In this document: positions 5,319 to 33,589 of the stretch, piece by piece
How positions within the stretch are numbered: position 1 is the first letter of the stretch
Layout: the number at the start of each line of letters is the position of its first letter
IMG/VR virus record: IMGVR_UViG_3300046001_005126
Coordinates: 1 to 55,725 of that record
Direction: 5' to 3' (one strand)
DNA length: 55,725 nt
Origin: a virus
Taxonomy: Duplodnaviria > Caudoviricetes
Program-made: the position numbers and the translations under genes
The notes under the pieces: generated by a model
Seen by the model: the letters and a program-made list of their open reading frames with translations, nothing else
Told to the model about the DNA's origin: nothing
Databases searched by the model: none

Positions 5319-5368
5319 GATTGTTTCGGCGTGTTTTCCTGTGTAATCTGCTGTCGAGGAGACATCAG

Positions 5369-16021: not shown

Positions 16022-17217
16022 GCATGTACAACGATTACGATTTTGATGTCATCGCAGTTGATCCGTCTGGATTCCTGAGTTACCAGTCTGGTAAGGCATC
16101 ATCATCGCTGAAGTTTGTTATGTCCTGTGAGCATGCCGAGGAGTTCGCACTACGGCAGATGGGCAAATTCTGGACTTCCGCTGCGCCAAGTCCTGTGCTT
16201 CCTGTGCCGTTTCCATTCGACAACCTCACTGATCAGCCGCGAGGCTATGGGCGAATGAACCTTGTCGCAACAGGGTTTTCAATTGAGCCAGTGTCTGCCG
16301 CGTGCTTCGGCAACAATCTTAGCGCCCCGAGGGCTCCTGTTGGAGATCCTGCAGACATCGATACGATGGCTTTGTACTTCACTCCCTCTCCGGAACCAGA
16401 AGAGGAGCAGCCAGACAACTCCTGCTGCGAATGTATGGTGACTCTGACATACGAGGAGAATCCGTGTGACTGCTGCGGGTACGACCAGAATTCTTTGAGC
16501 CCAACGTATCGGCAGTGGGTCGCTAATGATGAGATCTTGCCGGGGACGTGCATTTCCGTTGAGAGAAATCCAGCCTACGAAATGCTGACGCTTCCGAACG
16601 GAAATCTAATCTGGAAAGATCTTCCATCATCGACAGAAGACGAGCAGATCGCAAGGCAGTTGAAATCTGATTCGTATGCGTACAAGATTATTCCAAAGGC
16701 TGACATCATCGTCAGTTGGCACAACGTCCCGGTCAGGAATATTTGTGCAATTGAAAACCACCTGAGAAACTTCAGGGGAACAGTAAACGACTTGGCATGG
16801 GGCGACGTGCTTCAGTGCGATGCGGCTCCAGTTGCTCCAACGGCATGCGGGTGTGGCCAGTACGAGCCAGAGACGATCATGTTCATCGACTATCAGGAAG
16901 ACAGATCAAGGAGGACCGATGCGTTTGGCGGAAACTTCCTGAACTCTGGCGACCCTGCAAATAACATGAATACGACGACTCTCAAGCTGATCTTCAAGCA
17001 GAAGCGAATTGAGATACCCAATTCAGAGACATACTCTGACAGCAACGGCTGTCCTGACGATAATGACGAAGCCTATGGATGGAACCATCTGTTCTTCGAC
17101 AGAAACACTGAAGACGACTCTCCTGGCGAATGGATGCGTGTCGCCGTTGACAACGCAACAGAAGATCCGCTCTTTCCGCTAAAATCATTCTCTGACATAT
17201 TCTACCCAGTCCTATGA
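16018..17217 (+). CDS. Tail tip / distal tail protein, Cys-rich
   Basis: Follows the TMP with ATGA coupling; GTVN...W, GWNH motifs. Confidence 0.65.
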   Translation: MSMYNDYDFDVIAVDPSGFLSYQSGKASSSLKFVMSCEHAEEFALRQMGKFWTSAAPSPVLPVPFPFDNLTDQPRGYGRMNLVATGFSIEPVSAACFGNNLSAPRAPVGDPADIDTMALYFTPSPEPEEEQPDNSCCECMVTLTYEENPCDCCGYDQNSLSPTYRQWVANDEILPGTCISVERNPAYEMLTLPNGNLIWKDLPSSTEDEQIARQLKSDSYAYKIIPKADIIVSWHNVPVRNICAIENHLRNFRGTVNDLAWGDVLQCDAAPVAPTACGCGQYEPETIMFIDYQEDRSRRTDAFGGNFLNSGDPANNMNTTTLKLIFKQKRIEIPNSETYSDSNGCPDDNDEAYGWNHLFFDRNTEDDSPGEWMRVAVDNATEDPLFPLKSFSDIFYPVL

Positions 17218-18947
17218 CAACACCAAAGCGATGGACTCCCGGAGATCCGATCACCGCTGAACGCCTAAACGCGACGATCAGCGAATCTGTTCGTCCGCGC
17301 CGAGACATTTCACTTGGTAATGGGTCATCGCTGGTCAATGAAACTCTTGGGAACCAGTCGGCCACTGAGAGGCACCAGCAGATAAAACTGGTTGTCGCTG
17401 TGACGGACTTCGCGATTTCCGGGACTCCGACAGACATCGCAGCATGGCCCGACGACATTCCGTCCGGACTGGTTAAAGAAGTCCGACTGAACCGCAGGTC
17501 AGGAACTCATGGGCAAGACGACTCTAATAAATCCTTCCGCGCCTACGACGCTGTCGGCGGATTAAATGGAGGGATTTGCCAGACGGGGACAACCACAAAC
17601 CCTGCCAGCGAGTCATCGACAACGGCAGCCAGCAAGTTGGCATGTGACGTTTTTTATGTCTTGTTCAATACAGCATCAAAGAGATGGGAAGTCATTGAGG
17701 CTGGCGGGCGCACCCATGAAATCTGGTTCACTATTGACGAGGTGCAGAGAGAACAGGAATGCGAAACAACCCTGATTGTCCGGCCAACTTACTACACAGG
17801 GGGATGCTCTACAGGGATTCCCGGCGAGGATCAGGACGGGCTGATCACTGTCACAGACCCATTCAGAACTCTGGAACAATACTCGGAAGAGTTTCTACTT
17901 GCTGCGACAGGACGTGCAACGTGGATGTATCCACGCACTGGCAACGGTTCCAGTAGTTCATCCGCTGAATCAACGAGCAGTTCTTCAGGTGGTGAGTGCG
18001 ATCCAGTCTGGATCGTGGACATTATCTACGAAGCTGTAATATGTGCTTCGTCGAGTTCATCATCGAGTAGTTCGTCATCCAGCAGCAGTTCGTCCTCAAG
18101 TAGTTCGTCCTCAAGTAGTTCTGCATCCAGTTCTGCATCCAGTTCTGCATCCAGTTCTGCATCCAGTTCTGCATCCAGTTCTGCATCCAGTTCTGCATCC
18201 AGTTCTGCATCCAGTTCTGCATCCAGTTCTGCGTCCAGTTCTGCGTCAAGTTCTGCGTCAAGTTCTGCGTCAAGTTCTGCGTCAAGTTCTGCGTCAAGTT
18301 CTGCGTCTGCTTCTGCGTCTGCGTCTGCATCCGGAAGCAGTTCGTCATCCGGAAGCAGTTCTGCATCCAGTAGCAGTTCGTCATCCAGCAGTTCAGCATC
18401 CAGCAGTTCAGCATCCAGCAGTTCAGCATCTAGCAGTTCAGAATCTGATTCTGTGTCTGGTTCGGTGTCTGGTTCGGTGTCTGGTTCGGCGTCTGGTTCG
18501 GCGTCTGGTTCGGCGTCCAGCAGTAGTTCGGCGTCCAGTAGCAGTTCGTCATCCAGCAGTTCAGCATCCAGCAGTTCAGCATCCAGCAGTTCAGCATCCA
18601 GCAGTTCAGCATCCAGCAGTTCAGCATCCAGCAGTTCAGCATCCAGCAGTTCAGGATCTGATTCGGTGTCTGATTCGGTGTCTGGTTCGGTGTCTGGTTC
18701 GGTGTCTAGTTCGGTGTCTGGTTCGGAGTCCAGCAGTAGTTCGGCATCCAGCAGTAGTTCGGCATCCAGTTCGGCATCCGCATCCAGTTCGGCATCCGCA
18801 TCCAGTTCGGCGTCTTCCGAATCCGGATCATCTGACTCATCGGCAAGTTGCAATCTTGTTTTGATAGACGTAACTTTCGACTCCGTGACGTGTTCGCTGG
18901 TAAAGACGTTCTGCAACCTGACTACAGGCGAAATAACAACAGGGTAG
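17214..18947 (+). CDS. Tail protein with long serine-rich repeat region
   Basis: N-terminus PGDPITAERLN resembles tail-associated proteins; ~265 aa Ser/Ala/Val/Gly repeat; short Cys-containing C-terminal cap. Confidence 0.8.
   Translation: MTTPKRWTPGDPITAERLNATISESVRPRRDISLGNGSSLVNETLGNQSATERHQQIKLVVAVTDFAISGTPTDIAAWPDDIPSGLVKEVRLNRRSGTHGQDDSNKSFRAYDAVGGLNGGICQTGTTTNPASESSTTAASKLACDVFYVLFNTASKRWEVIEAGGRTHEIWFTIDEVQREQECETTLIVRPTYYTGGCSTGIPGEDQDGLITVTDPFRTLEQYSEEFLLAATGRATWMYPRTGNGSSSSSAESTSSSSGGECDPVWIVDIIYEAVICASSSSSSSSSSSSSSSSSSSSSSSSSASSSASSSASSSASSSASSSASSSASSSASSSASSSASSSASSSASSSASSSASSSASSSASASASASASGSSSSSGSSSASSSSSSSSSSASSSSASSSSASSSSESDSVSGSVSGSVSGSASGSASGSASSSSSASSSSSSSSSSASSSSASSSSASSSSASSSSASSSSASSSSGSDSVSDSVSGSVSGSVSSSVSGSESSSSSASSSSSASSSASASSSASASSSASSESGSSDSSASCNLVLIDVTFDSVTCSLVKTFCNLTTGEITTG
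18048..18845 (+). repeat. Coding tandem repeats (12-nt SASS, 15-nt SASSS, 12-nt SVSG units)
   Basis: tctgcatccagt, tcagcatccagcagt and tcggtgtctggt arrays; all unit lengths are multiples of 3. Confidence 0.95.
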
Positions 18948-19442
18948 ATGGATATGAGTTCGGGTTCGAGTTCATCATACTGCCATTGCTGCAACAACTG
19001 TATCTGTGGTCGTCCAGTGGGAGATATCTTGCGGGTGCTGTGGTCATCAGGAAACGGCACGCATGGCTCAGCAGCGAGAGAGTTTCTCATTTACTACGGA
19101 ATGCACGATGAGCCTGGGATCACGTGTTCCCCATTCTCACCAGACCCATTCCCGGGTTACCGTGGGAGTGTTTCTGGGACGTTCCCATTGCCAATGGGCG
19201 GAACAAGAGGCGACACTCTGGAAGTGATTTTAGTGTGTCAATGCATCGGGTGTGAGTTTTGCATATATTATCGGTGGGTAAACGATGATGCTTATCCTAC
19301 CTGGCAAGTGGTTCCTTACACCATTCTCACGTGTGACTGCCCTGCGGTCTTAGACGTGATCGGTGGTTTCACTGAAGGTAACTCTTGGGGGTATCAGGTC
19401 AGCGATGTCACTGTTTACGAGCTTGAAAGCAACTGTTTATGA
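18948..19442 (+). CDS. Cys-rich hypothetical (probable tail-associated) protein
   Basis: Abuts the previous stop; YCHCCNNCICG, CQCIGCEFC, CDC. Confidence 0.65.
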   Translation: MDMSSGSSSSYCHCCNNCICGRPVGDILRVLWSSGNGTHGSAAREFLIYYGMHDEPGITCSPFSPDPFPGYRGSVSGTFPLPMGGTRGDTLEVILVCQCIGCEFCIYYRWVNDDAYPTWQVVPYTILTCDCPAVLDVIGGFTEGNSWGYQVSDVTVYELESNCL

Positions 19443-19594
19443 GACGCCTTCTGCTTGTTCTGTTGATTCCAATTGTGTCGCAATTTGGAGTCCACTATTT
19501 CCGAATATTCGCTAAGGCAATTGGCGAGGCATCGGTCAACCAGTGGAAACAAGTGATGGTCGAAAACATTGAGAAGGAATTCCCTCGTGAGTGA
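19439..19594 (+). CDS. Small hydrophobic protein, 51 aa (not in ORF track)
   Basis: MRRLLLVLLIPIVSQFG...; ATGA coupling; fills the gap. Confidence 0.5.
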   Translation: MRRLLLVLLIPIVSQFGVHYFRIFAKAIGEASVNQWKQVMVENIEKEFPRE

Positions 19595-22223
19595 TTGCCA
19601 GTGCGAACTGACCGGATTTTGTAAGGTGCGAAACATCGCAATGAAGCGAACGCATCAAATGATTTGCCGGGAGAATAAGCATCGCATGGACGCAATTCTG
19701 GCTGGCGAGCACACTAAAAGTCACGACGAAAACAACCAAGAAAAAGTGAAAGGTGTCGGAACAGTTCTGTCGTCAATCTTCAAAACTATTGGGATTGAAT
19801 CGTCGGAAACTTGTAATTGCAGGCGATATGCAGTGGAGATGGATCGACGAGGGACGAAGTGGTGTCTTGAAAACATAGACACAATCGTAGGATGGCTGCA
19901 AGAAGAAGCTGTCGCAAGAAAACTGGTGTTCTTTCGTGCTGGTGTAAAGATTGCCTTGTATTCATTACTTAAAAGCTATTCGATATTTGAAAAGGTTCGT
20001 CCGGACAGCGGCGAGGACAGCAGGGTCTTCAGCAGGCGAGACGACGAATGGGCAGTCGCAGTCACGGCAGCACCGCGAGCCGGAGAGTACACTCTTGCCA
20101 AATGCCTGCAGTCAATAATTGCGGCTGGCTGGAGCGACCCTATTGTCTTCGCAGAGCCTGGCATCGAGGTGCCTGAAGGAATAACCACATTCCACAACCC
20201 AGAACGTCGAGGCTGCTTTCACAACTGGCTTCACAGTGCAAAATGGGCACTTGAGAATACGCAAGCTGAAATGATCCTGTGCGTTCAGGACGACTCTCTG
20301 TTCCACCCGGACAGCAGGCAGTTCACCGAGGATCACTGCTTGTGGCCCAGTGATGACACTGGGATTGTCAGTCTCTACACTGCCTCGCACTACCAAAGCG
20401 AAAAAGGGGCGATGAAAGCAGTTGGGATTAACGAAGTCTACACGGGCGTATGGTGGGGCACTTGTGCTGTCGTTTGGAGGAGATCAGCACTTGAGGCAGT
20501 GGTCAGCCATGAAATAACAAAGAACTGGCTGGGTATTTCACCACGGAAACAGGCTGATGAAACCCATAACCCTAAACTGCGAGCAAAAAGGGTCGCTGAT
20601 TATTTTGAAGGAAGAAAAAAGCAGCCGCACCTAATCAACAACAGTGACTACGTCGCTGGGCATGTTCTCAACCTGCTTGGCTTCAGGAAGTTCTTTGTAG
20701 ACCCATCCCCAGTATCACACATTGCCAAAGTCTCAACAATAAATCACGGAGGGAATAGCGGCAAGAGGAATTGCGCACGATGTGCAGACCATAAAAAACC
20801 ACTCATGTCTCAGGTTGGGACAGTTATCAACAGGATTGAAAAGGAAGAAGACATTATGGCATCAGGAAGAGGACCAAGGCCAGCAGGAGCGTCGCTAATC
20901 ATAACTCCGGGACCATCAGTTGGCGCTGTGCCGAAACATACGTTTCTGATAAGGACTTCGTTTCGAGATCCAATAGTGTCGGCCTACAGATGGAACGTCA
21001 CTCAGCATACGTTGCTCAAGTCGCTCGCATCTCAAAACAACAAAGACTTTGAGATTCAACTCATCTGTGGAGATGATGACCCGCTGCGTGAAGTGAAGTT
21101 AGCGGCATTCAGTGAAGTTGCCCCGACAACAATTGCCCCGAAGGACTGGTACAACCAGCCACACGACGGGGTGTGGAGAAGAACAACCCGAGTCGATGAC
21201 GACGACATGCTGTCGATCCGGTTCGTAGAGCTTCTGGCAGAGCAGCCGTTTGACGGAACCGAATGTCTATTCAACTTCCCGATCGGATGCCTATGGTCAG
21301 AGGGGGTGTCACATCGCTGGAATTACCCAGTGAATCAGTTCATTACCATTCAGACGAACACGCGACTGACTCCGTATCATTTTGCGCATCAATACTATCA
21401 GCAACTCCTGCCTGTTGTTGTCGTGACCGAGGAGATCCACTGGATGTGGATCAGGCACCACGGGGTACTCAGTGGGGCAACACCGGGAGCAATTCCGAAG
21501 CGGTTTACGCATGGCGTGATACAGACAAACGCAAGTCTGTTTCCGTACGACTTTGCCACCATCAAGACTGCTCTAGTCCATGATCAGTCGGCGGTCGTGA
21601 AGGTTTTGGAGTTGCGGGCGAAGTACGGACGAGTTGACAAAGATGTACTCAACATCTGCGCAAACGCGACGACTGATGAGTTAACAACACTTGCAGCGAC
21701 TTACGGAACTGACAAAGGTGTCACTGGGACTACAGACAAAAACCATCAGTACACGCTGGTCTACGATCGCCTGTTTAAGGGGATGCGAGACCAGGTCGAA
21801 CACGTCCTTGAATTCGGCGTGGGCACCGGCGCAAGTCTTCGAATGTGGGCAGACTATTTCCCTAAAGCGATGATTCACGGGCTGGACGTTAAGCGAAGAA
21901 GTGTGCCACATCCTCGGATCGTAACACACAGGTTTAACTCCATCACCCCGCTTGACACACACTTCAAGTTCTCATTGGTGATTGACGACGCGAGTCACAT
22001 ATCGAGTCACCAAAGAGTCATGTTCGAACTGCACAGCAAACATGTCAAGCCAGGAGGGTTCTATATAATTGAAGACCTTCATGCCTGCAGACTGGGTGGC
22101 AAGTATTTAAACGAATCTCCTTCAATGCTTGAAACATGCCGTCTGTGGGTGTCTACTCCGCCATTCGGATGGACGTGCCAGCTTTACGGCGACCAGTTGT
22201 GCATACTGCAGAAAGATGAATAG
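19587..22223 (+). CDS. Multidomain protein: Cys-rich N-terminus + GT-A-like domain + rhamnosyltransferase-like domain + class I SAM methyltransferase
   Basis: CNC motif; CVQDD; SLASQ...TTRVDDDD; YGTDK..HQY..VLEFGVGTGASLRMW..IDDASH..GGFYIIEDL (sugar O-methyltransferase-like). Confidence 0.78.
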   Translation: MSDCQCELTGFCKVRNIAMKRTHQMICRENKHRMDAILAGEHTKSHDENNQEKVKGVGTVLSSIFKTIGIESSETCNCRRYAVEMDRRGTKWCLENIDTIVGWLQEEAVARKLVFFRAGVKIALYSLLKSYSIFEKVRPDSGEDSRVFSRRDDEWAVAVTAAPRAGEYTLAKCLQSIIAAGWSDPIVFAEPGIEVPEGITTFHNPERRGCFHNWLHSAKWALENTQAEMILCVQDDSLFHPDSRQFTEDHCLWPSDDTGIVSLYTASHYQSEKGAMKAVGINEVYTGVWWGTCAVVWRRSALEAVVSHEITKNWLGISPRKQADETHNPKLRAKRVADYFEGRKKQPHLINNSDYVAGHVLNLLGFRKFFVDPSPVSHIAKVSTINHGGNSGKRNCARCADHKKPLMSQVGTVINRIEKEEDIMASGRGPRPAGASLIITPGPSVGAVPKHTFLIRTSFRDPIVSAYRWNVTQHTLLKSLASQNNKDFEIQLICGDDDPLREVKLAAFSEVAPTTIAPKDWYNQPHDGVWRRTTRVDDDDMLSIRFVELLAEQPFDGTECLFNFPIGCLWSEGVSHRWNYPVNQFITIQTNTRLTPYHFAHQYYQQLLPVVVVTEEIHWMWIRHHGVLSGATPGAIPKRFTHGVIQTNASLFPYDFATIKTALVHDQSAVVKVLELRAKYGRVDKDVLNICANATTDELTTLAATYGTDKGVTGTTDKNHQYTLVYDRLFKGMRDQVEHVLEFGVGTGASLRMWADYFPKAMIHGLDVKRRSVPHPRIVTHRFNSITPLDTHFKFSLVIDDASHISSHQRVMFELHSKHVKPGGFYIIEDLHACRLGGKYLNESPSMLETCRLWVSTPPFGWTCQLYGDQLCILQKDE

Positions 22224-22990
22224 TGGAAGACATAAACGCAGTTGCTGCCATGAAGACGTACAGCAGCGACGATAACGCTTCTGATCGCGAAGACATTCAC
22301 AGGGCAATCAACACATACCAGAATACATGTGGCTTGCCGCTGCATGTGTTCGACGATAGTTCATGCCCGACGTATGTCGAGTATTTGATGGGATTCAAGG
22401 GCGTTTTTCTTCACAAACATGGGGAGAATGTCGGGCCAACTGAGAACAGCAATCGCTGTATGAGTCTGTTCAAACAGTATCACGAGATCGATGCGTTAAT
22501 CCTGCTGGATGACGATATCGAGTTCCTGAAGCCTGGCTGGTCAGACCTATACCTCAATGCACTCTCAGACGAAGTTCAGCTACTGTCATTCAATGACAAA
22601 GAAATCACGCAGTCACCCGGTGTCCCGCACGGCAACTACTCACTTTCGCAATGGAGTTGTGGAGTTTGCGTGACATTGACGCGGCAATGCTGGATGAAAG
22701 CTGGAATGTATGGACCATTCCCGGAAAAGTATGGATGGTGCCATATAGAGTACAACTGGCGATGTGCGTTACTGGGGCTCATCCCAATGGATGGGTTCTA
22801 TGACGTACCTGGAATCCATAACTACATTAAGATTTCCTCTTACTTAGGAAGCGAAGAAAAGCTGCGTCAAATCGCAGTCAACTGGTCATCAGAAACAGTT
22901 CAGTTGACTGTAGATAAATACTTCGCAGGAGATCAGGAGAGATGGGATAAATTAAAGAAAATCAATCAACCACTGCGGCCAGTTAGGTAG
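22223..22990 (+). CDS. Glycosyltransferase (GT2/GT-A-like)
   Basis: VFDDSS, N.G...N.N, LLDDDIEF, G.......YGW.H.EY motifs. Confidence 0.78.
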   Translation: MEDINAVAAMKTYSSDDNASDREDIHRAINTYQNTCGLPLHVFDDSSCPTYVEYLMGFKGVFLHKHGENVGPTENSNRCMSLFKQYHEIDALILLDDDIEFLKPGWSDLYLNALSDEVQLLSFNDKEITQSPGVPHGNYSLSQWSCGVCVTLTRQCWMKAGMYGPFPEKYGWCHIEYNWRCALLGLIPMDGFYDVPGIHNYIKISSYLGSEEKLRQIAVNWSSETVQLTVDKYFAGDQERWDKLKKINQPLRPVR

Positions 22991-23126
22991 CTACATCAGA
23001 ATCACCTCGCACGATTGCAGGACCGCAGAGAGGGACAGGCAGGCTGGCATCAACGGGTTATCAGAGCAAGTCCAATCATCTCTAAGCAAATACACTGCGA
23101 TGAGGCTGGAGGCAGGCATAGCATGA
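22986..23126 (+). pseudogene. Start-less remnant paralogous to the C-terminus of the upstream glycosyltransferase
   Basis: SYIRITSH..AERDRQAGINGLSEQVQSSLSKYTA aligns with NYIKISSY..EEKLRQIAVNWSSETVQLTVDKYFA. Confidence 0.65.
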
Positions 23127-23536
23127 TCAAGGTCTACACGGGCGGAACTTTCGATTTGTTTCATGCGGGGCATGTGCGATTCCTTCGCCGGTGCGCAGAT
23201 ATCGGGTACGTGACGGTTTCAGTAAACACAGATGACTTTGTATTGCGGTATAAAGGGAAAGCCCCTGTCATCAAACTTGAGGACCGCATTGCAGTCCTTG
23301 ACGCATGCCGGTGGGTTTCATGCGTAGTGGTGAATGAAGGTGACGAAGATTCAAAAGTCGCAATTGAAAAGATTTCCCCGGATGTAATCGCGATTGGTTC
23401 TGACTGGCAGGCAAAAGACTACTGCCGACAGATGGGGTTCACATCAGAATGGCTGGAAGCCAGAAACATTGCACTGGTATACCTGCCCTATACGGATGGA
23501 ATTTCATCAACCTTGATTAAAGAGAGAATGCAATGA
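23123..23536 (+). CDS. Cytidylyltransferase (TagD/RfaE-like)
   Basis: YTGGTFDLFHAGH (HxGH), IGSDW, YTDGISST. Confidence 0.92.
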   Translation: MIKVYTGGTFDLFHAGHVRFLRRCADIGYVTVSVNTDDFVLRYKGKAPVIKLEDRIAVLDACRWVSCVVVNEGDEDSKVAIEKISPDVIAIGSDWQAKDYCRQMGFTSEWLEARNIALVYLPYTDGISSTLIKERMQ

Positions 23537-24195
23537 TTCACATTCTGATGCCGACCAGAAACAAGCCCGAAGAAATCACCAGAGTGTGCAGCGAGTTAAG
23601 CGGATCGGAGTGTCGACTGTGGCTTTACGTGGCAGATGACGACCCTAAACTCGGCGAATACCAATCATTGCGTTTACCGACTGCAGCAACAGTCGTCTTC
23701 GGAACACCACTGGGGTTCAGTCGCGGAGTGAATCATCTTGCGAGCATCGCAGCAAAACAGCCAAACGCGACTATGCTCATGCGTGCCGAGGATGACTTTT
23801 ATTTCAAGCCGGGGTGGGATAAAAAATACAAAGAAGCCATGTGGAAAGACGGCGTCGGAATGGTATGGTGTAATTATGTGATGAAGGGGCCGGAAGCAGA
23901 GCCACACACAGCAGCGATAGGACTTGGGTGGTATCGTGCGCTCGGATGGTTTTCGTTGCCTGGCGTTCAACACCACTACTGCGATAACGTGTTGCGAGAA
24001 ATTGCTGAGGCCGCTGGTCGCAGCAGATACATCCCAGAGCCGATGATTGAGCATCGGCACAACCTCAAAGATCCAAGAAAGTGTGGGCATGGCCAGCAAA
24101 TCTATGATGCAGACAAAAAAAGGTATGATCAGTGGCGGAGTGGCGAAAAAGCAGACGACTGCAGACGAATTTTCGAAGCTCGACATGGAGTCTAG
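23533..24195 (+). CDS. Glycosyltransferase (GT2-like)
   Basis: ILMPTR, ADDD, AEDD..F..GWD, HHYCDN, IEHRH. Confidence 0.78.
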   Translation: MIHILMPTRNKPEEITRVCSELSGSECRLWLYVADDDPKLGEYQSLRLPTAATVVFGTPLGFSRGVNHLASIAAKQPNATMLMRAEDDFYFKPGWDKKYKEAMWKDGVGMVWCNYVMKGPEAEPHTAAIGLGWYRALGWFSLPGVQHHYCDNVLREIAEAAGRSRYIPEPMIEHRHNLKDPRKCGHGQQIYDADKKRYDQWRSGEKADDCRRIFEARHGV

Positions 24196-24343
24196 CCTGA
24201 TTGCGGGCGAGATGATGATCAGGGTTCGCGTGACTGACGGGAAAGTGCTGACACGAGTTCAGACAAAAGAATTCCCGAACGCGGACATCGCAATCGCGGC
24301 AAAGTCAATCGAAGAACAATTGGCGACTCTGTACGCCACATAG
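24185..24343 (+). CDS. Hypothetical protein, 52 aa
   Basis: In-operon ORF overlapping the upstream stop. Confidence 0.5.
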   Translation: MESSLIAGEMMIRVRVTDGKVLTRVQTKEFPNADIAIAAKSIEEQLATLYAT

Positions 24344-24363
24344 TATTGATGGCGGCGAAATCA

Positions 24364-25098
24364 ATGACCCAGTTCGTCTATCTCAACGTCATCGGTCCCG
24401 ACAACGGCGAAGAACTCCGGCTGTCGATGGCATCCGTGCGGAAGAACTTCACAGGATCGTCGACGTTCACGATCATCGGTGAAAAGCCGAACTGGTACAC
24501 AGGGCATCACATTCCGGCTTCACGCCTGACGAAGATGCGAGAACTGCCAGGTCGCATGGCGTTCCGCGACACACAAGCGAAGATCATGCTGGCAGCGTCT
24601 CATCCGGAGATCGACGAAGAGTTCGTCTGGATGATGGATGACCAGTTCTTCCTGAAGCCAGCGTCGATCGAGGATCTCAGAGTTCTTCGGTACGATCCGT
24701 GGTATCGGACGAATTCGAAGCGTGAATGGCATCGACTGATCAAGATGACGTTCGCCGCGCTGGCTGCAAATGGCAGGTCTAACTTTCAGGCCGGCACTCA
24801 TCTTCCGCATGTCTTCGAGAAGACGAAACTGCAGCAGATGTTCGTCGAATACGGGTTCCCGAATAATTTGTACCTGTTCGAAATACTGTACGAAAATCAT
24901 TGGCAATTGGATCGCACGCCGATACCTTACGGAAGCATTTGGCAGGGTGTTCAGTATCCGCAGTTTCTGAAGAGATTGCTGAGGCCGCTGATGTCTCGCC
25001 AATTGAATGAAATTGATGCCAATGTGCTCAACTACCAGAGCAACGTATGGAGGCCGACTATGCGAGATTGGCTGAGGAACAGGTTTACGGAGGAATGA
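24364..25098 (+). CDS. Putative glycosyl/phosphotransferase (Stealth-like N-terminus)
   Basis: EELRLSMASV..N, IIGEKPNW, FVWMMDDQFF, THLP resemble the ELRYSLRS / NDD / H.P motifs. Confidence 0.6.
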   Translation: MTQFVYLNVIGPDNGEELRLSMASVRKNFTGSSTFTIIGEKPNWYTGHHIPASRLTKMRELPGRMAFRDTQAKIMLAASHPEIDEEFVWMMDDQFFLKPASIEDLRVLRYDPWYRTNSKREWHRLIKMTFAALAANGRSNFQAGTHLPHVFEKTKLQQMFVEYGFPNNLYLFEILYENHWQLDRTPIPYGSIWQGVQYPQFLKRLLRPLMSRQLNEIDANVLNYQSNVWRPTMRDWLRNRFTEE

Positions 25099-25099
25099 G

Positions 25100-26590
25100 A
25101 TGCTCAATGTTTTCACCTACTGGGAGCATGCTCCGAAAGCTCGCAAGTGGCCTTACATTGAATTTTGCCTCGACACTATTCGATCGAAGTGTTTGGACGG
25201 CTGTTTGTTCCACCATATTACTTCAGCGAATATCGAGAAGTACATCCCAGACGGGATCATTCATCCGTCATGGAAGAACATCAAAGAACTCGGTGTGAAG
25301 TCCGATTGCGTCCGCGCTGCTGTGCTGATGCAGTATGGCGGGCTTTACATTGACGCAGATACGCTGATGCTGCGATCGCCAAAGGAACTCGACACAGGGC
25401 ATGAATGCGGATTCATGACGTGGTCTACTCCGCCGCGACGGGTAATCGCTGGTTACATCTACTGCTTCCCAGGCAGCGAAGTCGCGAAGAAGTGGGTTGC
25501 GAATATCAATGCAATGCTCGAGCAGGGAAAGCATGGATGGACTGATCTTGGAGAGAGGTGCCTGACTCCTGCCGTTGATTCCAGCGAAAACACGATCAAC
25601 TGGCCTTTGGCGACATTCCTCCCAATAGAGATCGACACGGATGTCCAGCGGTTCTTTAGCAGTTCTCCGTGGAAGGCTCCGGATCAGTCAGTCGCGATTG
25701 GATTGAATCATTCTCTTATGACGAGGAAGTATGCTGGAGAAATGAGGTCTGCAGGTCACGAGAATGCGTCGTTTAAGAAAAGATCGAAGGACTCAAAGCT
25801 AACGATTCACAAGATCTTCAGCAAAAGCAGATCATCTCAGAGTCAAATGAGGATCGGAGTTTGCGTTCCAACATTCCGCAGGCCGAAACTGCTTGGGCAT
25901 TTGATCTCCTGCTTCGAAAGCCAAAAGTACGAAGACAGGCTCCTGATCGCATATGACGACCATGGAGAGATCGCTGAGTCGTCCGGCGATCGCTGGAAGA
26001 TCGTAAGTCGCAACGATCCACATGCCTCTCTAGGAGATAAGAGAAACGCGATCGCTGAGATGTTCGGCGATTCCGTCGATGCATTCGTGTTCTGGGATGA
26101 CGACGACATCTTCCTTCCTGATGCATTGTCTGCCGTGGAGAACGCACTGAGCCGATCAGACTGGTGCAGGGCGAGTCAGGTACTTGTTCGTGGAACTCGG
26201 GATCTGTCGCGGTGCAAGACTTACTGGCGCGAAGACAAGTCTGACAAAGCGTTTCAGTGTACCTGGGGGGTGACTCGTTCTGCGTTCTGGAGTGTCGGCG
26301 GGTTCGATTCTGTTTCTCTGGGAGAAGACCTTCGACTTGCAAAGAAACTGCGAGACGCGAAGATCAGCGAGGCTGACCCGATTGCAATGGGATGGAGTCC
26401 TTATGCTGTTTCATCGCCATACGGAAATGAACACTTTTCGTGGACTGTTAAGGATTACGAGAAGTGGAAGGATGTCGCAAAGTCTGACGGCGAATTCAGG
26501 GTTGCGGATCATCCATTCAGTTTGAAGATTGCAGATCATGTCAATGATCGATCTTGGAAGGGAGATTGGTATGACGACGAAGTACGATGA
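25100..26590 (+). CDS. Two-domain glycosyltransferase (GT32-like + GT2)
   Basis: SDCVRAAVLMQYGGLYIDAD; VCVPTFRR...LGDKRN...FWDDDD...GED. Confidence 0.88.
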   Translation: MLNVFTYWEHAPKARKWPYIEFCLDTIRSKCLDGCLFHHITSANIEKYIPDGIIHPSWKNIKELGVKSDCVRAAVLMQYGGLYIDADTLMLRSPKELDTGHECGFMTWSTPPRRVIAGYIYCFPGSEVAKKWVANINAMLEQGKHGWTDLGERCLTPAVDSSENTINWPLATFLPIEIDTDVQRFFSSSPWKAPDQSVAIGLNHSLMTRKYAGEMRSAGHENASFKKRSKDSKLTIHKIFSKSRSSQSQMRIGVCVPTFRRPKLLGHLISCFESQKYEDRLLIAYDDHGEIAESSGDRWKIVSRNDPHASLGDKRNAIAEMFGDSVDAFVFWDDDDIFLPDALSAVENALSRSDWCRASQVLVRGTRDLSRCKTYWREDKSDKAFQCTWGVTRSAFWSVGGFDSVSLGEDLRLAKKLRDAKISEADPIAMGWSPYAVSSPYGNEHFSWTVKDYEKWKDVAKSDGEFRVADHPFSLKIADHVNDRSWKGDWYDDEVR

Positions 26591-27278
26591 AGAGAAGCGA
26601 TTCTGGAAGGATGAGATCTCTTTTTACGTCCGATGGTTCCACGGAAGAATCAAGGAACTGTACGGCATTCCCTGTCCGAAGCAGCATGAGAAGATTCAGC
26701 GTTTCTCTTCGGAAGAACTGAATGCGATCGAGACGTGGATCAATGCCGACAAATGGCGATACTGCAAGAGACTGCATGTTGAGCCAACGTACTTCTCGGG
26801 CAAGAAAGTTCTGGAAGTTGGCTCTGGTCCGCTGGGGTTGAGTCGGTTCTTTGCTGGCGCGGAAGTGCATTATCTCGATCCACTTCATGCATGGTACTGG
26901 CAGTGCGGATACCGCAAGGTTGGATATTCAATCGAGGCGAGAATAGAAGACTGCATGCACCATCGATATGACGCTGTAATTTCAGTGAATGCAATCGATC
27001 ATGTCGATCAGTTTGAAGACGCAATCGATGCCTGTGAAATGATGTGCGACATGGACGGCGAAATCCGCATGGACATCCACTACCACGCACCAACAGTCAC
27101 AGAACCACACGTCCTGAATGACGAGATCGTCGCTGCGGCATTTAAGAGATTCGACATGAAGAAGATAGCGGAGAATCCGTCGCGAGTCTTCTATCCACGC
27201 GGTACGCATCCAGACTCCGATCGATTCGCTGTGTGGAGCAATCGCGACTACGTTTATGACGCAGTGAGGTCGCTGTGA
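26571..27278 (+). CDS. Class I SAM-dependent methyltransferase
   Basis: KKVLEVGSGP, YDAVISVNAIDHV. Confidence 0.85.
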   Translation: MTTKYDEEKRFWKDEISFYVRWFHGRIKELYGIPCPKQHEKIQRFSSEELNAIETWINADKWRYCKRLHVEPTYFSGKKVLEVGSGPLGLSRFFAGAEVHYLDPLHAWYWQCGYRKVGYSIEARIEDCMHHRYDAVISVNAIDHVDQFEDAIDACEMMCDMDGEIRMDIHYHAPTVTEPHVLNDEIVAAAFKRFDMKKIAENPSRVFYPRGTHPDSDRFAVWSNRDYVYDAVRSL

Positions 27279-28195
27279 ACCGAGAACAAGCACTTGCAAA
27301 GATGGTCGCCCCTGTCAAGAAGCGAAAGACTGCCTGGCTGAAAGGAATCATCCAGATCCACGTCACCCGCGCCTGTGATTTGGCATGCTCCAATTGCACG
27401 CAAGGATCTCAGTTCGGAGGCAAGGCCTCGTTCATTACCGAAGAAAACTTCGAGGCGGCTGTCATCAGTCTGAAGGACTATTTCGGCGTTGTGGGGATCT
27501 TCGGCGGGAATGCCGCTCTTGCTCCAAACTTCGAAGCACTCTGCCTAATCCTTGAAAAGCATATCCCGAAGAATCGTCGAGGACTCTGGTGCAACAATCC
27601 ACGAGGACACGGCAAGCTGATGCGACGGGTGTTTAACCCGAAAGTTTCGAACCTGAATGTGCATTTGGTTAAGGACGCCTACGACGAATTTAAGCGTGAC
27701 TGGCCAGAGTCAGAACCGTTCGGACTTCACCACGACTCACGTCATTCTCCCGTCTACGGATCACTGGAGAAACTGGTTCCGGACGAGTCGCAGCGATGGG
27801 ATCTCATCGGCAACTGTGCGATCAACCAGAACTGGTCGGCGATGATCTGTCAGTTCCGTGGCGAACTTCGCGGATACTTCTGCGAGATTGCTGGCGGGCA
27901 GGCGATGCTGAACCAAGAGAATCCGGAATACCCTGATACCGGAGTGAGAATCGAGGCAGGATGGTGGAAGAAGGCGATGCCGGAATACGGCGCACAAGTC
28001 GACTTTCATTGCCATCGATGTCTCGTTCCGTTGAACGGTCACGGGGCGCTGGCTCAGGCCGACAAGAAGACACAGGTCACGGAAGAGTATTCTCACCTGA
28101 AGTTAAAGTCTGGAGGAACATTCCAGATCGTCGACAGTGTCAATGACATTCTTCCCGAAGAAAATCGCATCGTGACGGAGTACCTTGGAACATGA
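27275..28195 (+). CDS. Radical SAM protein
   Basis: CDLACSNC (CxxxCxxC), FGGN, additional C-terminal Cys including CHRC. Confidence 0.88.
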   Translation: MNREQALAKMVAPVKKRKTAWLKGIIQIHVTRACDLACSNCTQGSQFGGKASFITEENFEAAVISLKDYFGVVGIFGGNAALAPNFEALCLILEKHIPKNRRGLWCNNPRGHGKLMRRVFNPKVSNLNVHLVKDAYDEFKRDWPESEPFGLHHDSRHSPVYGSLEKLVPDESQRWDLIGNCAINQNWSAMICQFRGELRGYFCEIAGGQAMLNQENPEYPDTGVRIEAGWWKKAMPEYGAQVDFHCHRCLVPLNGHGALAQADKKTQVTEEYSHLKLKSGGTFQIVDSVNDILPEENRIVTEYLGT

Positions 28196-28734
28196 GAATA
28201 CAAACTCGTGACTGCTTGGGTGATGTTGCGAACGCTTTGGGCCTTAGAACTGCTGTCGAGGTAGGGACTCATCAGGCAGTATTTGCCCGCTCATTCATGA
28301 AGAGATTCAGGGGATCGATCACGCTTGTCGATCCTTGGCTCGACTACGAGCAGGGCAAGGATGCGTTTTATCCTTCTGTCGACCCAACAAGCAAGACTCG
28401 ATCGAAGGACATGCAGATCGCCGTCGGGATCATGACGGAATTCTACGGACGGGTGACTTTTATGCAGACGACGGGTGAGCAGGCGTCTCATTCGTTTGCC
28501 GATTCATCAGTCGGCATTGTCTACATCGACGCACTTCACGAGTATCAAGACGTGATCAGCGATATCAACACATGGTTTCCGAAAGTTGCCAGTGGAGGGA
28601 TCATTGCAGGTCACGACTTTAGTTACATGCTTCCCGGAGTTGTTGCTGCTGTGGAAGAATTCAGGATCAAGAGCGGACTTCAGGTCAACCTGACTTGCGA
28701 CGATATGCCGTCATGGTGGGCGATCAAGAGATAG
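28192..28734 (+). CDS. Methyltransferase (Methyltransf_24-like)
   Basis: VEVG, VDPW, VYIDALHEY..V..DI..W...GGIIAGHDF. Confidence 0.88.
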   Translation: MRIQTRDCLGDVANALGLRTAVEVGTHQAVFARSFMKRFRGSITLVDPWLDYEQGKDAFYPSVDPTSKTRSKDMQIAVGIMTEFYGRVTFMQTTGEQASHSFADSSVGIVYIDALHEYQDVISDINTWFPKVASGGIIAGHDFSYMLPGVVAAVEEFRIKSGLQVNLTCDDMPSWWAIKR

Positions 28735-28754
28735 TTCCAAGGAAGAGGCGTTTT

Positions 28755-29498
28755 ATGACAGCAATCAAGCCCCGAGGCATCACTGTCTGCGTCGACTACG
28801 CCGACATCCTCGCACTGACGCTTCCGTACAACCGGGAGTTCTTCAGCGAGTTCATGGTGGTCACGACGGTCAAGGATCATCAGACAATCCACCTCGCGCA
28901 GGAGAACGACTGTCATGTCCATCTCAGCGATGCTTTCTATCGTGGCGGCGCTGTGTTCAATAAGTTTGCAGCGATGGAAGAAGGGCTTGACGTTTTCGGT
29001 CGGCACGACTGGATGTGCATCATTGATGCTGACATCGTCATCCCGAAGAACAAGCTCGCCTGGGTGCCGAAGGTCGGGAAGATCTACACTCCGCATCGCA
29101 GAATTCTCCACCAGATCCCGGCGGAAATCCCGGAACATCGCCTATGGCGACAGTCGAAGAGGCCGATGAACAACGAAGAGTTCGCAGGCTACTTCCAGTT
29201 GTTCCATGCGAGCGAACCGTTCCTTCAGAAAACTCCGTGGCATGGGACGGACTGGACGTGGGCCGGTGGCGCTGACTCGTTCTTCCATCAGAAGTGGTCA
29301 GAGTCGAATAAGGTTCGGCCACCGTTCGAAGTTCTGCATCTCGGGCCACCGTTCATCAACTGGTGCGGACGAGTCACTCCGTTCGCTGATGGGACGACAC
29401 CCGAGAAGGCGATGCTTCGCAACGAGCATAGGATGATGCTGCTGAAGAATCGGCGGGAGAACAAGCAGGACAAGTACAAGGCGGAGAAACTGAAGTGA
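28755..29498 (+). CDS. Glycosyltransferase-like (DxD) protein
   Basis: TVCVDYAD.L, FNK, IIDADIV, GYFQLF. Confidence 0.7.
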   Translation: MTAIKPRGITVCVDYADILALTLPYNREFFSEFMVVTTVKDHQTIHLAQENDCHVHLSDAFYRGGAVFNKFAAMEEGLDVFGRHDWMCIIDADIVIPKNKLAWVPKVGKIYTPHRRILHQIPAEIPEHRLWRQSKRPMNNEEFAGYFQLFHASEPFLQKTPWHGTDWTWAGGADSFFHQKWSESNKVRPPFEVLHLGPPFINWCGRVTPFADGTTPEKAMLRNEHRMMLLKNRRENKQDKYKAEKLK

Positions 29499-30298
29499 GA
29501 ATCTCCGTCGGAATTCTGTCAGCGCCGAGGCCAGAGCCGACGCTTCTCAAGTGTTCGAGTGCGATCGCTGAGTCTGGATTCAGCCTGATCCATCACGCGA
29601 CGGAATCAGAGAGCAGGCATTTTCTGTCGCCGTGTGAGTTTGAGCGATCGCCGACGGGATCTCTCGGGAACTTCCAGAATTGGCTGCAGACTGCCAGGGA
29701 TCTGCTCACGATGGACCACGACGCAATCCTGATCGCCGAGGATGATGCTTTGTTCTGCCGGGACGTGCATGCACTTCTGCAGCGGGATCTCTGGCCTTCC
29801 CGGGACTGTGGTTGCGTCTCGCTGTACTGCCCTGCAATGTCGCACTATTCCCAGACATCGTTCGGGCTCGGTAGAACTCGAGTCGTCATGCGGGAACCGC
29901 TGTCAAGCAGCAACAATCTGGTCGGCGCGCTCGCTCTTGTATTTCCGGCTGCTGTTCTGCGAGAACTCGTTTATCACGAATCGATCGGACTCTGGAAGGG
30001 ATCGCACTCGCAGGCGAGGAATCCCGGAACACCACCTTATGAGCGAAAGGCGGTCGACACATGGATTGGCAGAACTCTGGTTTCGATGGGTCTGTCGATT
30101 TGGAACTATTCGCCGAGCCTCGTTCAGCATTATGTCCCGAATCCAAAAGCGGCCAATTCTTCGCTTGGGCATGGTTTGGCCAACGGAAACCGCCAGTCGC
30201 GGTCGTGGGCTGGAAATTCAAGGCAGAGTGTGCTGGAAATGATTCCGGCGCGAAGGGAGAGATTTGATGGTGCCGGTGTACCTGAACATTCGGTCTGA
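29495..30298 (+). CDS. Glycosyltransferase-like protein
   Basis: ILIAEDDALF, PSLVQH; paralogous to domain 2 of the 19587 protein. Confidence 0.72.
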   Translation: MRISVGILSAPRPEPTLLKCSSAIAESGFSLIHHATESESRHFLSPCEFERSPTGSLGNFQNWLQTARDLLTMDHDAILIAEDDALFCRDVHALLQRDLWPSRDCGCVSLYCPAMSHYSQTSFGLGRTRVVMREPLSSSNNLVGALALVFPAAVLRELVYHESIGLWKGSHSQARNPGTPPYERKAVDTWIGRTLVSMGLSIWNYSPSLVQHYVPNPKAANSSLGHGLANGNRQSRSWAGNSRQSVLEMIPARRERFDGAGVPEHSV

Positions 30299-30977
30299 GT
30301 ATGCGGAGGCGGACAGTTCGCGGTATCGGTTCTCGCTGACCGAGAACATTCTGATCCCGAGCCTCAAGAATCAGGTCGCTCGAGGAGCGATCATCTTCCT
30401 GGAGCAGTCTCCGATGGATCCGTACTTCAAGCGGCGGGAGAAAGCCTTTAGGTCAGTCACTGATCGCGTTATTCCGATGCACGAGAAGGAAGGCATAGAA
30501 TTGCCGGCTAGAGTTGAGGCGACAGTTGGCGACGACGACTTCCTCGGGCCGGAGTTTGTCCAGAAAATGCGGATGGGGTTTACGCCGGAACGCGGAAACG
30601 TCCAGATGTTCATGCCGCATGGGTACATTTTCTTCGAGGGAGCCCTGCATCCGTGGCGGAACAAAGCGGATTTCATTGAGATCACTCAGTACGGAAACCC
30701 GGGTTCGCCGGTCGTTCGGCACGAAGGATTCGACATTGCCAGCACTCCGCAGTGGATTTACTGCAGGCATCAGATGAATTTTAACCCGCTTTCGGCTTCA
30801 GAAGTAGATGCTCCTGAGATAAAACTGGCTGCGTGGAAGGGTTGGCATCAAGGAATAGTGGCTCGCTATTGCCAAACCCAAGTCCTCACGGCGACTGCGA
30901 ATGGGTGTACTTTGCACCCAACAAAAAGCAAGTCGATGATGTACGCTAAGGGTTCTGCCCGTAGTCGAAGGAAATGA
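30264..30977 (+). CDS. Rhamnosyltransferase-like protein
   Basis: IPSLKNQ, GDDDFL, WIYCRH; paralogous to domain 3 of the 19587 protein. Confidence 0.6.
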   Translation: MMVPVYLNIRSEYAEADSSRYRFSLTENILIPSLKNQVARGAIIFLEQSPMDPYFKRREKAFRSVTDRVIPMHEKEGIELPARVEATVGDDDFLGPEFVQKMRMGFTPERGNVQMFMPHGYIFFEGALHPWRNKADFIEITQYGNPGSPVVRHEGFDIASTPQWIYCRHQMNFNPLSASEVDAPEIKLAAWKGWHQGIVARYCQTQVLTATANGCTLHPTKSKSMMYAKGSARSRRK

Positions 30978-31249
30978 TCATGGACTGTCTGGTTTGCTGG
31001 CTAGCAACATTTGGATTCGCTTTTACCATCGCGTTGACGCATGGTCCGCTGGGCTTATTCAAGACGATGCGGGAGAAAGTGAAGGCTCGCTTCGGCGAAA
31101 AACACTGGGTGACAATCGGAATTGGGTGCCCCGTCTGTATCAGCATGTGGGTTGCAATTCTGTTCACAATAGCCTCCGGTGGGGGCATCCTGATGTGGGC
31201 GTCGAGCGTGGGGTTCACCTGCGCTGTGACAAGCATCAGTCCCGATTAA
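30974..31249 (+). CDS. Small membrane protein with CxxC (DUF1360-like)
   Basis: Hydrophobic segments; GP.G.F...R and CPVCISMW. Confidence 0.7.
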   Translation: MIMDCLVCWLATFGFAFTIALTHGPLGLFKTMREKVKARFGEKHWVTIGIGCPVCISMWVAILFTIASGGGILMWASSVGFTCAVTSISPD

Positions 31250-31337
31250 GTCCACTGCCCGGGCCATGGTGTGATTCCTTCGCACTTCCATGGAGACGCC
31301 CCCGGGCAGTGGCAACCACATTTTCAGGAGATCTGTC

Positions 31338-31541
31338 GTGAATAACGCGAGCTGGAAAACAACCGCCGCCGGCATCGTCGCGGCGTTAAGCATTCTCCTT
31401 CATCAGGCGAATGCATATCTGGACACAGACCCGAAGACAGTCTTCGACCTGACTCAGGTCATTGCTGCGTTTGGGATGCTGTGGATGGGAATCTCTGCTC
31501 GGGACAACAACGTCACGAGCGAAAAGGCAAAGGCAAAGTAG
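31338..31541 (+). CDS. Holin-like two-TM protein
   Basis: SWKTTAAGIVAAL...GISARDNNVTSE; two hydrophobic helices, basic tail; aggag RBS. Confidence 0.65.
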   Translation: MNNASWKTTAAGIVAALSILLHQANAYLDTDPKTVFDLTQVIAAFGMLWMGISARDNNVTSEKAKAK

Positions 31542-31565
31542 TTTCACAGTTCAGAAAGGCGTCTC

Positions 31566-33587: not shown

Positions 33588-33589
33588 TC

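Follow-up and report, generated by a model that had tools for sequence, protein, structure and literature searches.

Which substrate is served by the sugar-processing enzymes that a tailed phage encodes at the end of its tail module, next to a tail protein carrying a very long serine-rich tract? This question is raised by the virus record IMGVR_UViG_3300046001_005126 (Duplodnaviria; Caudoviricetes), one record of 55,725 bases that is estimated to be 93% complete, hereafter called the window. At 17214-18947, an open reading frame (ORF) encodes a protein assigned to the tail tip that contains a 268-residue poly-Ser tract, and a cluster of glycan enzymes of ~11 kb follows at 19569-30977. An earlier note on this DNA had proposed that the phage builds a methylated glycan on this tract as a dedicated scaffold, in the manner of the serine-rich repeat (SRR) adhesins. 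The most likely reading of the locus, to which we assign a probability of about one half, is a variant of virus-encoded virion glycosylation in which the phage enzymes attach a glycan, probably methylated and phosphodiester-containing, to Ser-rich tags and linkers of tail proteins, the 268-residue tract being an expanded acceptor array. This reading is favored by conserved Ser-rich tags at the ends of tail proteins and by the pairing of one enzyme of the cluster, a candidate Stealth-like sugar-1-phosphate transferase, with Ser-rich segments of neighboring proteins in related and in distant phage contigs.

The Ser-rich tail-tip protein

The ORF at 17214-18947 (+ strand) follows the tape-measure candidate and a gene for a 399-residue protein, and the Ser-rich tract gene lies in the tail module. 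Its product of 577 residues comprises three parts, and the next gene encodes a second protein with a Ser run:

17214-18044, + strand: N-terminal domain (residues 1-277), two OB-like β-barrels in the AlphaFold2 (AF2) model (pLDDT 81)
18045-18848, + strand: poly-Ser tract of 268 residues, 74% Ser, encoded by tandem DNA repeats
18849-18947, + strand: conserved, Cys-containing C-terminal piece of 32 residues, and the stop codon
18948-19442, + strand: Cys-rich protein of 164 residues with a short N-terminal Ser run and a CxCC cluster, no family match

The tract (residues 278-545 out of 577 in total) is assembled from SASS, SASSS, SGSA, and SGSV units and is composed of 198 S, 43 A, 12 G, 8 V, 4 D, and 3 E; every one of the six Ser codons occurs in it. 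Its DNA consists of several kinds of tandem repeat (periods of 12, 15, 18, 30, and 213 nt), and this low-complexity DNA is open in other frames too. Judging by the reading frames, the Ser frame is the translated one, because it is joined in frame to both the conserved N-terminal domain and the conserved 32-residue C-terminus, because the versions of 605 and 551 residues found in the two closest relatives (L001 and L002) vary by whole codons, with in-frame repeat numbers, and because the 32-residue C-terminus, which is kept in both despite their differing repeat numbers, carries a few amino-acid substitutions there.

Foldseek analysis of the N-terminal domain against the PDB and BFVD, together with a wider structure search (VIA), reports generic OB-fold matches only (Z ≤7.2) and yields no assignment to a particular tail-protein family. 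The protein is assigned to the tail tip from its position only. A search of 1.84 billion representative proteins returned 79 related clusters, among which the long poly-Ser form does not occur; short Ser-rich loops and C-terminal Ser-rich tags recur across the alignment of this tail-tip family, including its ~55% identical members. The second barrel of the N-terminal domain (residues ~163-244) is repeated ~20 times in a metagenome protein of 3294 residues (P0014). Regarding the following Cys-rich protein, its gene occupies the position of the variable gene that in relatives comes after the N-domain gene, and whose product has a CC/CxC cluster at its start and a Ser-rich stretch after it; the Cys-rich protein is a candidate distal tail or receptor-binding protein. 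A scan of a genome collection with the tail-tip alignment reported 33 pattern matches, none of which was confirmed; it therefore provided neither a prophage copy nor a clue to the host.

The long tract in close relatives

Nine near viral contigs possess structural proteins ~90-100% identical to those of the window. The poly-Ser tract is present in only two out of the nine (L001 and L002), and the four genes at 19569-24195 are found in these two and the window only; a separate search with the 884-residue protein encoded by the first of them returned no further full-length copy. Tract and four genes hence occur together in 3/3 genomes and in none of the others, a co-occurrence that counts as one event, the three genomes being near-identical over both elements. 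The tail-tip proteins of the other seven near relatives comprise 217-352 residues, of which 12-17% are Ser. No Ser-rich run exceeding 26 residues was found in 24 metagenome loci.

The core of the enzyme cluster (24346-30977) persists in relatives whose tail-tip Ser-rich segments are only ~8-26 residues long. Most of the nine near relatives keep much of 25100-30977, in mosaic combinations and in some cases with alternative cassettes, radical SAM/SPASM enzymes among their genes, and four more distant viral contigs (structural proteins ~50-60% identical) keep the core directly after the tail-tip gene. Compared across these contigs, the long tract is a recent expansion in one sublineage, accompanied by the four-gene addition. 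Because the core cluster is kept in relatives devoid of the tract, the latter is not a dedicated or required scaffold; the earlier note had itself named a cluster kept without a Ser-rich virion protein as a finding that would speak against its proposal, and this is in part what the relatives display.

The Stealth-like enzyme and its Ser-rich neighbors

The core opens with the following gene:

24346-25098, + strand: candidate Stealth-like sugar-1-phosphate transferase (profile against the PDB)

It is the best conserved gene of the cluster, is present in 9/9 near relatives, and belongs to phrog_7999, a family without annotated function. A profile built from 22 diverse family members reports hits in the PDB with the catalytic domain of GNPTAB, the human GlcNAc-1-phosphotransferase (7s6n, E 3.9e-6; 9bgg, E 5.9e-5), the alignment covering profile positions 25-175 with three shared conserved motifs visible. 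A profile built from close relatives only returned nothing in the PDB. A weak Stealth lead also exists for this protein in the protein atlas, and Pfam Stealth_CR2 matches three out of eight members (best E 0.0012) as well as the homologue in the distant locus L115 (E 9.4e-5), all below the 39.4-bit cut-off; the Pfam Stealth CR1, CR3, and CR4 models return no match in the family. The protein is thus a candidate, on profile evidence, for a Stealth-like sugar-1-phosphate transferase rather than a classical glycosyltransferase. Stealth enzymes are described as transferring hexose-1-phosphate, which yields a phosphodiester (PMC7729866). The phage family resembles the Stealth family, which includes GNPTAB and bacterial capsule phosphotransferases, in its alignment to the GNPTAB catalytic domain, and differs from it in that the phage protein is only ~250 residues long and soluble, with a Pfam match below cut-off. 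In cultured phages, it matches proteins of only two Gordonia phages, at 24% identity.

Within the tail-tip family, the Stealth-like gene is found in 22 loci, and in 21 of these the tail-tip protein has at least 7 Ser in some span of 20 residues. The gene was not detected in L034 and L047, for which at least 3 kb downstream were examined by a full-sensitivity profile search (L036 being too short to judge), and whose tail-tip proteins reach maxima of 5 and 4 Ser per 20 residues, respectively. A scan with the Stealth-like family reports 75 viral loci, 62 of them outside the group of the window; these distant loci were chosen by the presence of the enzyme, and their Stealth-like proteins are only 24-48% identical. 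With crude ORF calling, 22 Ser-rich ORFs were counted among 1082 in the distant loci, 19 of which share the strand of the Stealth-like gene and precede it by at most ~2.1 kb, and at least 7 Ser in 20 residues are reached by 58/107 upstream genes versus 57/890 other genes. At the level of loci, a Ser-rich protein is encoded directly upstream of the Stealth-like gene in 54 out of 61. The typical upstream pair consists of a small protein with a Ser-rich tail end, followed by a protein that starts with a Cys cluster and continues with a Ser-rich stretch. The co-occurrence for which the earlier note had proposed a test is therefore seen at the level of Ser-rich segments (21/22 tail-tip loci with the enzyme versus 0/2 without it, and the distant loci likewise).

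Three of the most distant loci (L121, L122, and L123) carry separate long poly-Ser tracts directly upstream of their Stealth-like genes. Delimited by eye, these regions span ~230, ~100, and ~130 residues, with longest uninterrupted runs of 24, 90, and 44, respectively, and in L121 and L122 the poly-Ser region is followed by transferase and methyltransferase genes. Comparison of these sequences indicates that long Ser tracts arose again in distant loci, i.e., that the expansion is a repeated one. A homologue of the Rhamno_transf-like domain is also encoded in 38 out of 62 distant loci, mostly directly after the Stealth-like gene in the loci inspected. Three genes past its poly-Ser/Stealth-like cluster, L121 contains a gene of the phage integrase family (13363-14550; Pfam E 3.9e-8), and some distant relatives may accordingly be temperate. 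In L115, a Stealth-like fusion of 585 residues adjoins a protein with a Ser-rich region of ~60 residues and is flanked by two genes (9097-9690 and 11413-12003) whose products have weak sulfotransferase-like N-termini (Pfam E ~0.006), which hints at sulfation in this lineage.

Ser-rich tags at the C-termini of two tail proteins

A scan of all ORFs of the window for Ser-rich segments flagged, besides the tail-tip protein, a protein of 144 residues whose last 13 residues are Ser-rich:

11880-12314, + strand: tail terminator, 144 residues, with a C-terminal Ser-rich tag (residues ~132-144), from AF2 and Foldseek

Its AF2 model, based on an alignment of 8 sequences, reaches a moderate pLDDT of 70 overall, with a disordered tag (pLDDT <50 for residues 134-144). 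Foldseek reports 24 matches at E ≤0.001, among them the terminators T5 p142, lambda gpU, SPP1 gp17, and NF5 neck (E 3e-5 to 7e-4); the matches listed at this threshold are tail terminators, tail-completion proteins, and neck, connector, or collar assemblies of phages and tailocins, plus three without stated function. The protein atlas leads to tail terminator and completion families, and the gene is located between the connector genes and the tube and tape-measure genes, as for siphovirus terminators. By modeled fold and position, this protein is a siphovirus tail terminator.

The terminator tag is kept in the window and in 9/9 near relatives, and its residues S137, S139, S141, and V144 remain unchanged even in proteins of only 55% identity. 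A very similar tag forms the C-terminus of the tail-tip protein in six out of the seven near relatives devoid of poly-Ser (L003, L004, L006, L007, L008, and L009), L005 being the exception. Such a Ser-rich stretch at the extreme end of two different tail proteins suggests, from its sequence conservation, something other than a spacer; the tags are unlikely linkers because a C-terminal end leaves nothing to link. Neither the capsid candidate (8703-9923) nor the product of 12327-12791 has a Ser-rich or other low-complexity extension.

The enzyme cluster

Together with the Stealth-like gene, the cluster at 19569-30977 comprises the following genes:

19569-22223, + strand: multidomain enzyme of 884 residues, Rhamno_transf and MycE/TylE-like sugar O-methyltransferase
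22223-22990, + strand: glycosyltransferase-like, 255 residues (phrog_2456, E 4.6e-14; DDD motif)
23015-23536, + strand: cytidylyl/adenylyltransferase-like, sugar-phosphate or glycerol-phosphate activation (Pfam CTP_transf_like, E 1.8e-18)
23533-24195, + strand: glycosyltransferase-like, 220 residues (phrog_14945, E 3.4e-20)
25100-26590, + strand: two-domain glycosyltransferase, DXD sugar-binding type and GT2 (Pfam Caps_synth 1.8e-7, Gly_transf_sug 1.3e-6, Glycos_transf_2 2e-4)
26529-27278, + strand: class I methyltransferase-like, weak (NCBIfam UbiG 4.4e-4; Pfam Methyltransf_11 0.016)
27275-28195, + strand: radical SAM enzyme (Pfam Radical_SAM, E 7.5e-6, below cut-off)
28192-28734, + strand: Methyltransf_24 methyltransferase (Pfam E 2.5e-14)
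28695-29498, + strand: GT2_4-like glycosyltransferase (Pfam E 8.7e-5, below cut-off)
29495-30298, + strand: transferase-like, invariant EDD motif (phrog_854, weak)
30264-30977, + strand: Rhamno_transf-like glycosyltransferase paralogue (BLASTP to the Rhamno_transf region of the 884-residue protein, E 1e-7)

In total, about ten sugar-transferase-like domains, three methyltransferase domains, one cytidylyltransferase-like protein, and one radical SAM enzyme are counted. The first count (about nine glycosyltransferases, three methyltransferases, a cytidylyltransferase, and a radical SAM enzyme) was roughly right, with uneven support: family matches are strong or moderate for the products of 19569-22223, 22223-22990, 23533-24195, 23015-23536, 25100-26590, and 28192-28734, and weak or below cut-off for those of 26529-27278, 27275-28195, 28695-29498, and 29495-30298. 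Several of the genes start at mechanically chosen TTG or GTG codons, and these starts are uncertain.

The 884-residue protein contains a transferase-like domain (residues 162-400), a Rhamno_transf-like domain (residues 461-632), and a sugar O-methyltransferase-like domain (residues 693-846), which matches MycE (PDB 3ssm, E 4.7e-18) and makes the methylated glycan proposed earlier plausible. Compared with mycobacteriophage genes, only its methyltransferase domain matches, at 32-37% identity. Its first domain has a paralogue in the product of 29495-30298 (E 9e-12), and its second one in that of 30264-30977, which displays an invariant GDDDF motif. The product of 23015-23536 matches the NCBIfam models of heptose-1-P adenylyltransferase and glycerol-3-P cytidylyltransferase at ~1e-20, both below cut-off. 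Enzymes related to that of 28695-29498 score 26.7-27.5 bits in relatives, and this gene is kept in distant ones. The radical SAM protein possesses a CxxxCxxC motif at residues 34-41 and scores 26.6 bits with Pfam against a cut-off of 29.5, its best PDB sequence match being at E 0.92; PDB sequence searches likewise returned nothing significant for the product of 25100-26590, nor with profiles of the two last proteins of the cluster. Inside the glycan cluster of two relatives, radical SAM enzymes with a SPASM domain are encoded (L005:16768-17763 and L006:14865-15848), of a family different from that of the window, as they yield no tblastn match. SPASM enzymes often modify peptides.

The cluster enzymes contain no clear membrane segment, apart from one borderline hydrophobic stretch in the product of 29495-30298, and Pfam and NCBIfam report no match among them with flippase, polymerase, or transporter families. 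This argues against an exported polysaccharide assembled on a lipid carrier and fits a cytoplasmic protein substrate better.

Proposed modification of tail proteins and alternative explanations

From the sequence features, terminator fold, family assignments, synteny, and phyletic pattern described above, we infer the Ser-rich segments as acceptors, the linkage chemistry, and any biological role as follows. Soluble cytoplasmic glycan-building enzymes, encoded at the end of the tail module, would decorate Ser-rich segments in tail proteins of the same phage, either ahead of assembly or in its course. Two proteins offer candidate acceptors, the terminator with its C-terminal tag and the tail-tip protein with its loops, linkers, and C-terminal tags. 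Because the conserved first enzyme is Stealth-like, the glycan would probably include a sugar-1-phosphate (phosphodiester) linkage; the other transferases would extend the glycan, and the three methyltransferases would cap it. In the sublineage of the window, repeat slippage would have lengthened one acceptor segment to 268 residues, and four genes would have been gained, encoding a transferase-transferase-O-methyltransferase fusion, two transferases, and a nucleotidyltransferase. If modified, the tract would turn into a long, densely substituted brush at the tail tip; the functions in adhesion, shielding, or host mimicry that were initially ascribed to such an appendage are speculation. A more specific version, which we consider unlikely, has the Stealth-like enzyme place sugar-1-phosphate directly on serine hydroxyls of tail proteins. 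The product would be a phage proteophosphoglycan, a conserved and undescribed virion modification across a large uncultured group, and the 268-residue tract would form an anionic, methyl-capped brush of tens of nanometers at the tail tip.

Several points weigh against modification of the Ser-rich segments. Glycosylation of the tail proteins is putative, and polyserine linkers serve as plain flexible spacers in bacterial secreted enzymes. The joint absence of enzyme and Ser-rich segments is known from a single lineage (L034 and L047), and within it L047, devoid of a Ser-rich tail-tip protein, keeps homologues of 28695-29498 and 30264-30977. Conversely, L021 has the enzyme with a best span of only 6 Ser in its tail-tip protein, and 7/61 distant loci have no Ser-rich upstream gene. 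The loci are mutually related, so that conserved gene order inflates the gene-level statistics and their independence is overstated; the synteny could simply be inherited gene order. Tail-fiber genes usually end the structural operon, and accessory genes are often located just after. The Stealth-like match itself is remote, with CR2 below cut-off and a precomputed Pfam domain in only 1/86 family members, and the Stealth acceptors described in the source cited above are sugars, not protein (PMC7729866).

The main rival holds that repeat slippage gave rise to the Ser-rich segments, which would serve unmodified as flexible linkers or tethers, and that the cluster acts elsewhere, e.g., on glycans of the host envelope or their precursors; this is possible and, in our judgment, less probable than modification of the tail proteins, as is the benefit it would bring through receptor masking, superinfection exclusion, or a lesser trapping of progeny on debris. 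The tract does consist of slippage-prone tandem repeats whose length varies among three near-identical genomes, the core cluster is kept without it, and polyserine linkers exist in bacterial enzymes. Several of the transferases also fall into the PHROG class 'moron, auxiliary metabolic gene and host takeover', and the integrase of L121 is compatible with a temperate life style of some members, whereas no integrase was found among the ORFs scanned in the window. An action on the envelope sits poorly with a cluster that returns no match for a membrane-embedded initiating transferase, a flippase, or a polymerase, and a linker role hardly accounts for Ser tags that sit at the C-terminus and have invariant positions. 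The joint absence of the Stealth-like gene and the Ser-rich segments in L034 and L047 also speaks against this rival. If the segments nevertheless are plain linkers, what is left is a repeat expansion of an unusual kind next to an accessory glycan cluster. It is also conceivable, with a low probability, that the cluster glycosylates virion proteins at other sites or other proteins, the Ser-rich segments being bystanders. Mycobacteriophage glycosylation indeed targets capsid and tail tube proteins, and L047 retains its two transferase homologues without a Ser-rich tail-tip protein; the plain capsid candidate and 12327-12791 product, as well as the Ser-rich proteins encoded so tightly next to the Stealth-like gene, argue the other way.

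Least probable is a hypermodification of phage DNA by glycosylation and methylation of modified bases. Phage glycosyltransferases often act on DNA, as in T-even phages, and two cluster proteins match the PHROG 'DNA methyltransferase' family phrog_2675. However, the cluster is located in the tail module, far from the replication genes (~39-53 kb), and the same enzymes stay beside tail genes in distant phages; the methyltransferase domain with the best structural relative is of the sugar O-methyltransferase type, and no thymidylate-synthase-like hydroxymethylase was seen among the ORFs scanned. DNA modification was rejected as the principal explanation on the tail-module site, the sugar-type methyltransferase, and the lack of a hydroxymethylase-like gene among the scanned ORFs.

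Comparison with known systems

To our knowledge, phage virion glycosylation has so far been documented mainly for mycobacteriophages, in which it alters the antibody recognition of the particle. The glycan acceptors of these phages are reportedly C-terminal extensions, which the tags of the window resemble. The Che8, Corndog, and cluster O type (Freeman et al., 2023) is the closest demonstrated case: mycobacteriophage glycosyltransferases encoded beside an O-methyltransferase modify capsid and tail tube proteins (PMC11600133). In the window too, glycosyltransferase and O-methyltransferase genes lie beside structural genes. It differs in its candidate acceptors, which are tail terminator and tail-tip protein instead of capsid and tube, in one acceptor region having grown to 268 residues, and in its far larger cluster, to which a nucleotidyltransferase, a radical SAM enzyme, and a Stealth-like enzyme belong. 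The locus therefore suggests a second, unrelated solution, in which short Ser-rich tail tags and linkers are combined with a Stealth-like sugar-phosphate transferase, a pairing conserved over dozens of uncultured phage contigs with several expansions to mucin-like poly-Ser tracts. If true, it would allow modified virion proteins to be predicted from metagenomes by a sequence rule, and it would provide a compact, soluble pair of enzyme and tag as well as a new factor in environmental phage adsorption, stability, and recognition. A limited literature search returned no account of Ser-rich phage tail proteins accompanied by Stealth-like enzymes.

For a poly-Ser tract beside a sugar-phosphate transferase, the closest analogy, with no homology claimed, is the Leishmania proteophosphoglycan, a thread-like molecule in which roughly one residue in two of a Ser-rich backbone carries phosphoglycans (PMC3384971). 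In contrast to the phage tract, it is eukaryotic and made in the secretory pathway. The domain order of the 884-residue protein is the same as that of the chlorovirus PBCV-1 protein A064R, a rhamnosyltransferase-rhamnosyltransferase-2-O-methyltransferase fusion that acts on the capsid protein (PMC7019647). The two were compared by domain order alone, and the chlorovirus differs as a virus of a eukaryotic alga that makes N-linked glycans.

The SRR adhesins of Gram-positive bacteria (Fap1, GspB, and SraP) share with the window long Ser-rich repeats of the Ser-X type beside cytoplasmic glycosyltransferases. Their three other defining features are lacking. Pfam, PHROGs, and NCBIfam report no Glycos_transf_1/GT4 match (GtfA/GtfB type) for any cluster protein; no accessory Sec family (SecA2, SecY2, Asp1-3) was found among the genes of 16018-34186, and the N-terminus of the Ser-rich protein is a conserved globular domain without hydrophobic leader or signal peptide; no LPXTG motif is present in its 32 C-terminal residues. 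Membership in the SRR adhesins, and with it the adhesin-like system first envisaged, was rejected because the GT4 pair, the accessory Sec system with signal peptide, and LPXTG are all missing. Polyserine linkers of secreted carbohydrate-active enzymes occur in Saccharophagus, Teredinibacter, and Cellvibrio. They resemble the tract as long, nearly pure Ser runs between folded modules, but they join catalytic and binding modules, whereas the tract has a tail domain on one side and only 32 residues on the other.

Genome setting and neighboring genes

The gene order on the + strand is siphovirus-like, and the following genes complete those given above:

3381-4814, + strand: large terminase
5321-6973, + strand: portal
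13445-16021, + strand: tape-measure protein candidate, 858 residues (phrog_4704, E 2e-4, weak)
16018-17217, + strand: Cys-rich tail protein, 399 residues, no match in Pfam or PHROG

The window has a G+C content of ~52% and contains no tRNA gene. The capsid region extends between the portal gene and that of the 144-residue terminator; the capsid candidate and several connector genes return no match in Pfam or PHROGs. No DNA-level or capsid-level relative was found among cultured phages, the capsid candidate being without any match, and the terminase is at most 33% identical to those of cultured phages. The tape-measure assignment is also supported by position, size, and a hydrophobic segment. 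Just ahead of this gene, two + strand frames overlap (12806-13300 and 13123-13452); overlapping frames before the tape measure are the usual layout of tail assembly chaperones expressed through a programmed frameshift. The 399-residue protein gene is syntenic in all relatives. Cys clusters (CC, CxC, CCxC) are unusually frequent in the tail proteins of this phage group, as seen in the products of 11880-12314, 16018-17217, and 18948-19442. Such clusters are also encoded in genes upstream of the Stealth-like gene in L064-L123, and a conserved one opens the preceding protein in most distant loci.

The glycan cluster lies between the tail genes and the likely lysis region, on the same strand. The segment 31566-33587, downstream of the cluster, is possibly this lysis region; it encodes a small protein that contains a hydrophobic segment, a Pro-rich one that begins with a hydrophobic leader, and a peptidase of the papain family (Pfam E 4.2e-7). 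A thioredoxin-like protein is encoded at 33194-34186 (Pfam E 3.2e-6); as listed, this ORF and that at 32781-33587, both on the + strand, overlap by ~390 nt, and the thioredoxin-like gene probably begins at some point downstream of 33194. The replication genes at ~39-53 kb encode an SNF2 helicase, a primase-polymerase, a Dam-type methyltransferase, and a UvrD-like helicase. Lastly, the ORF at 34200-34820 encodes a protein of 206 residues with a hydrophobic N-terminal segment and a PAS domain (Pfam PAS_3, E 4.2e-12), which is unusual for a phage.

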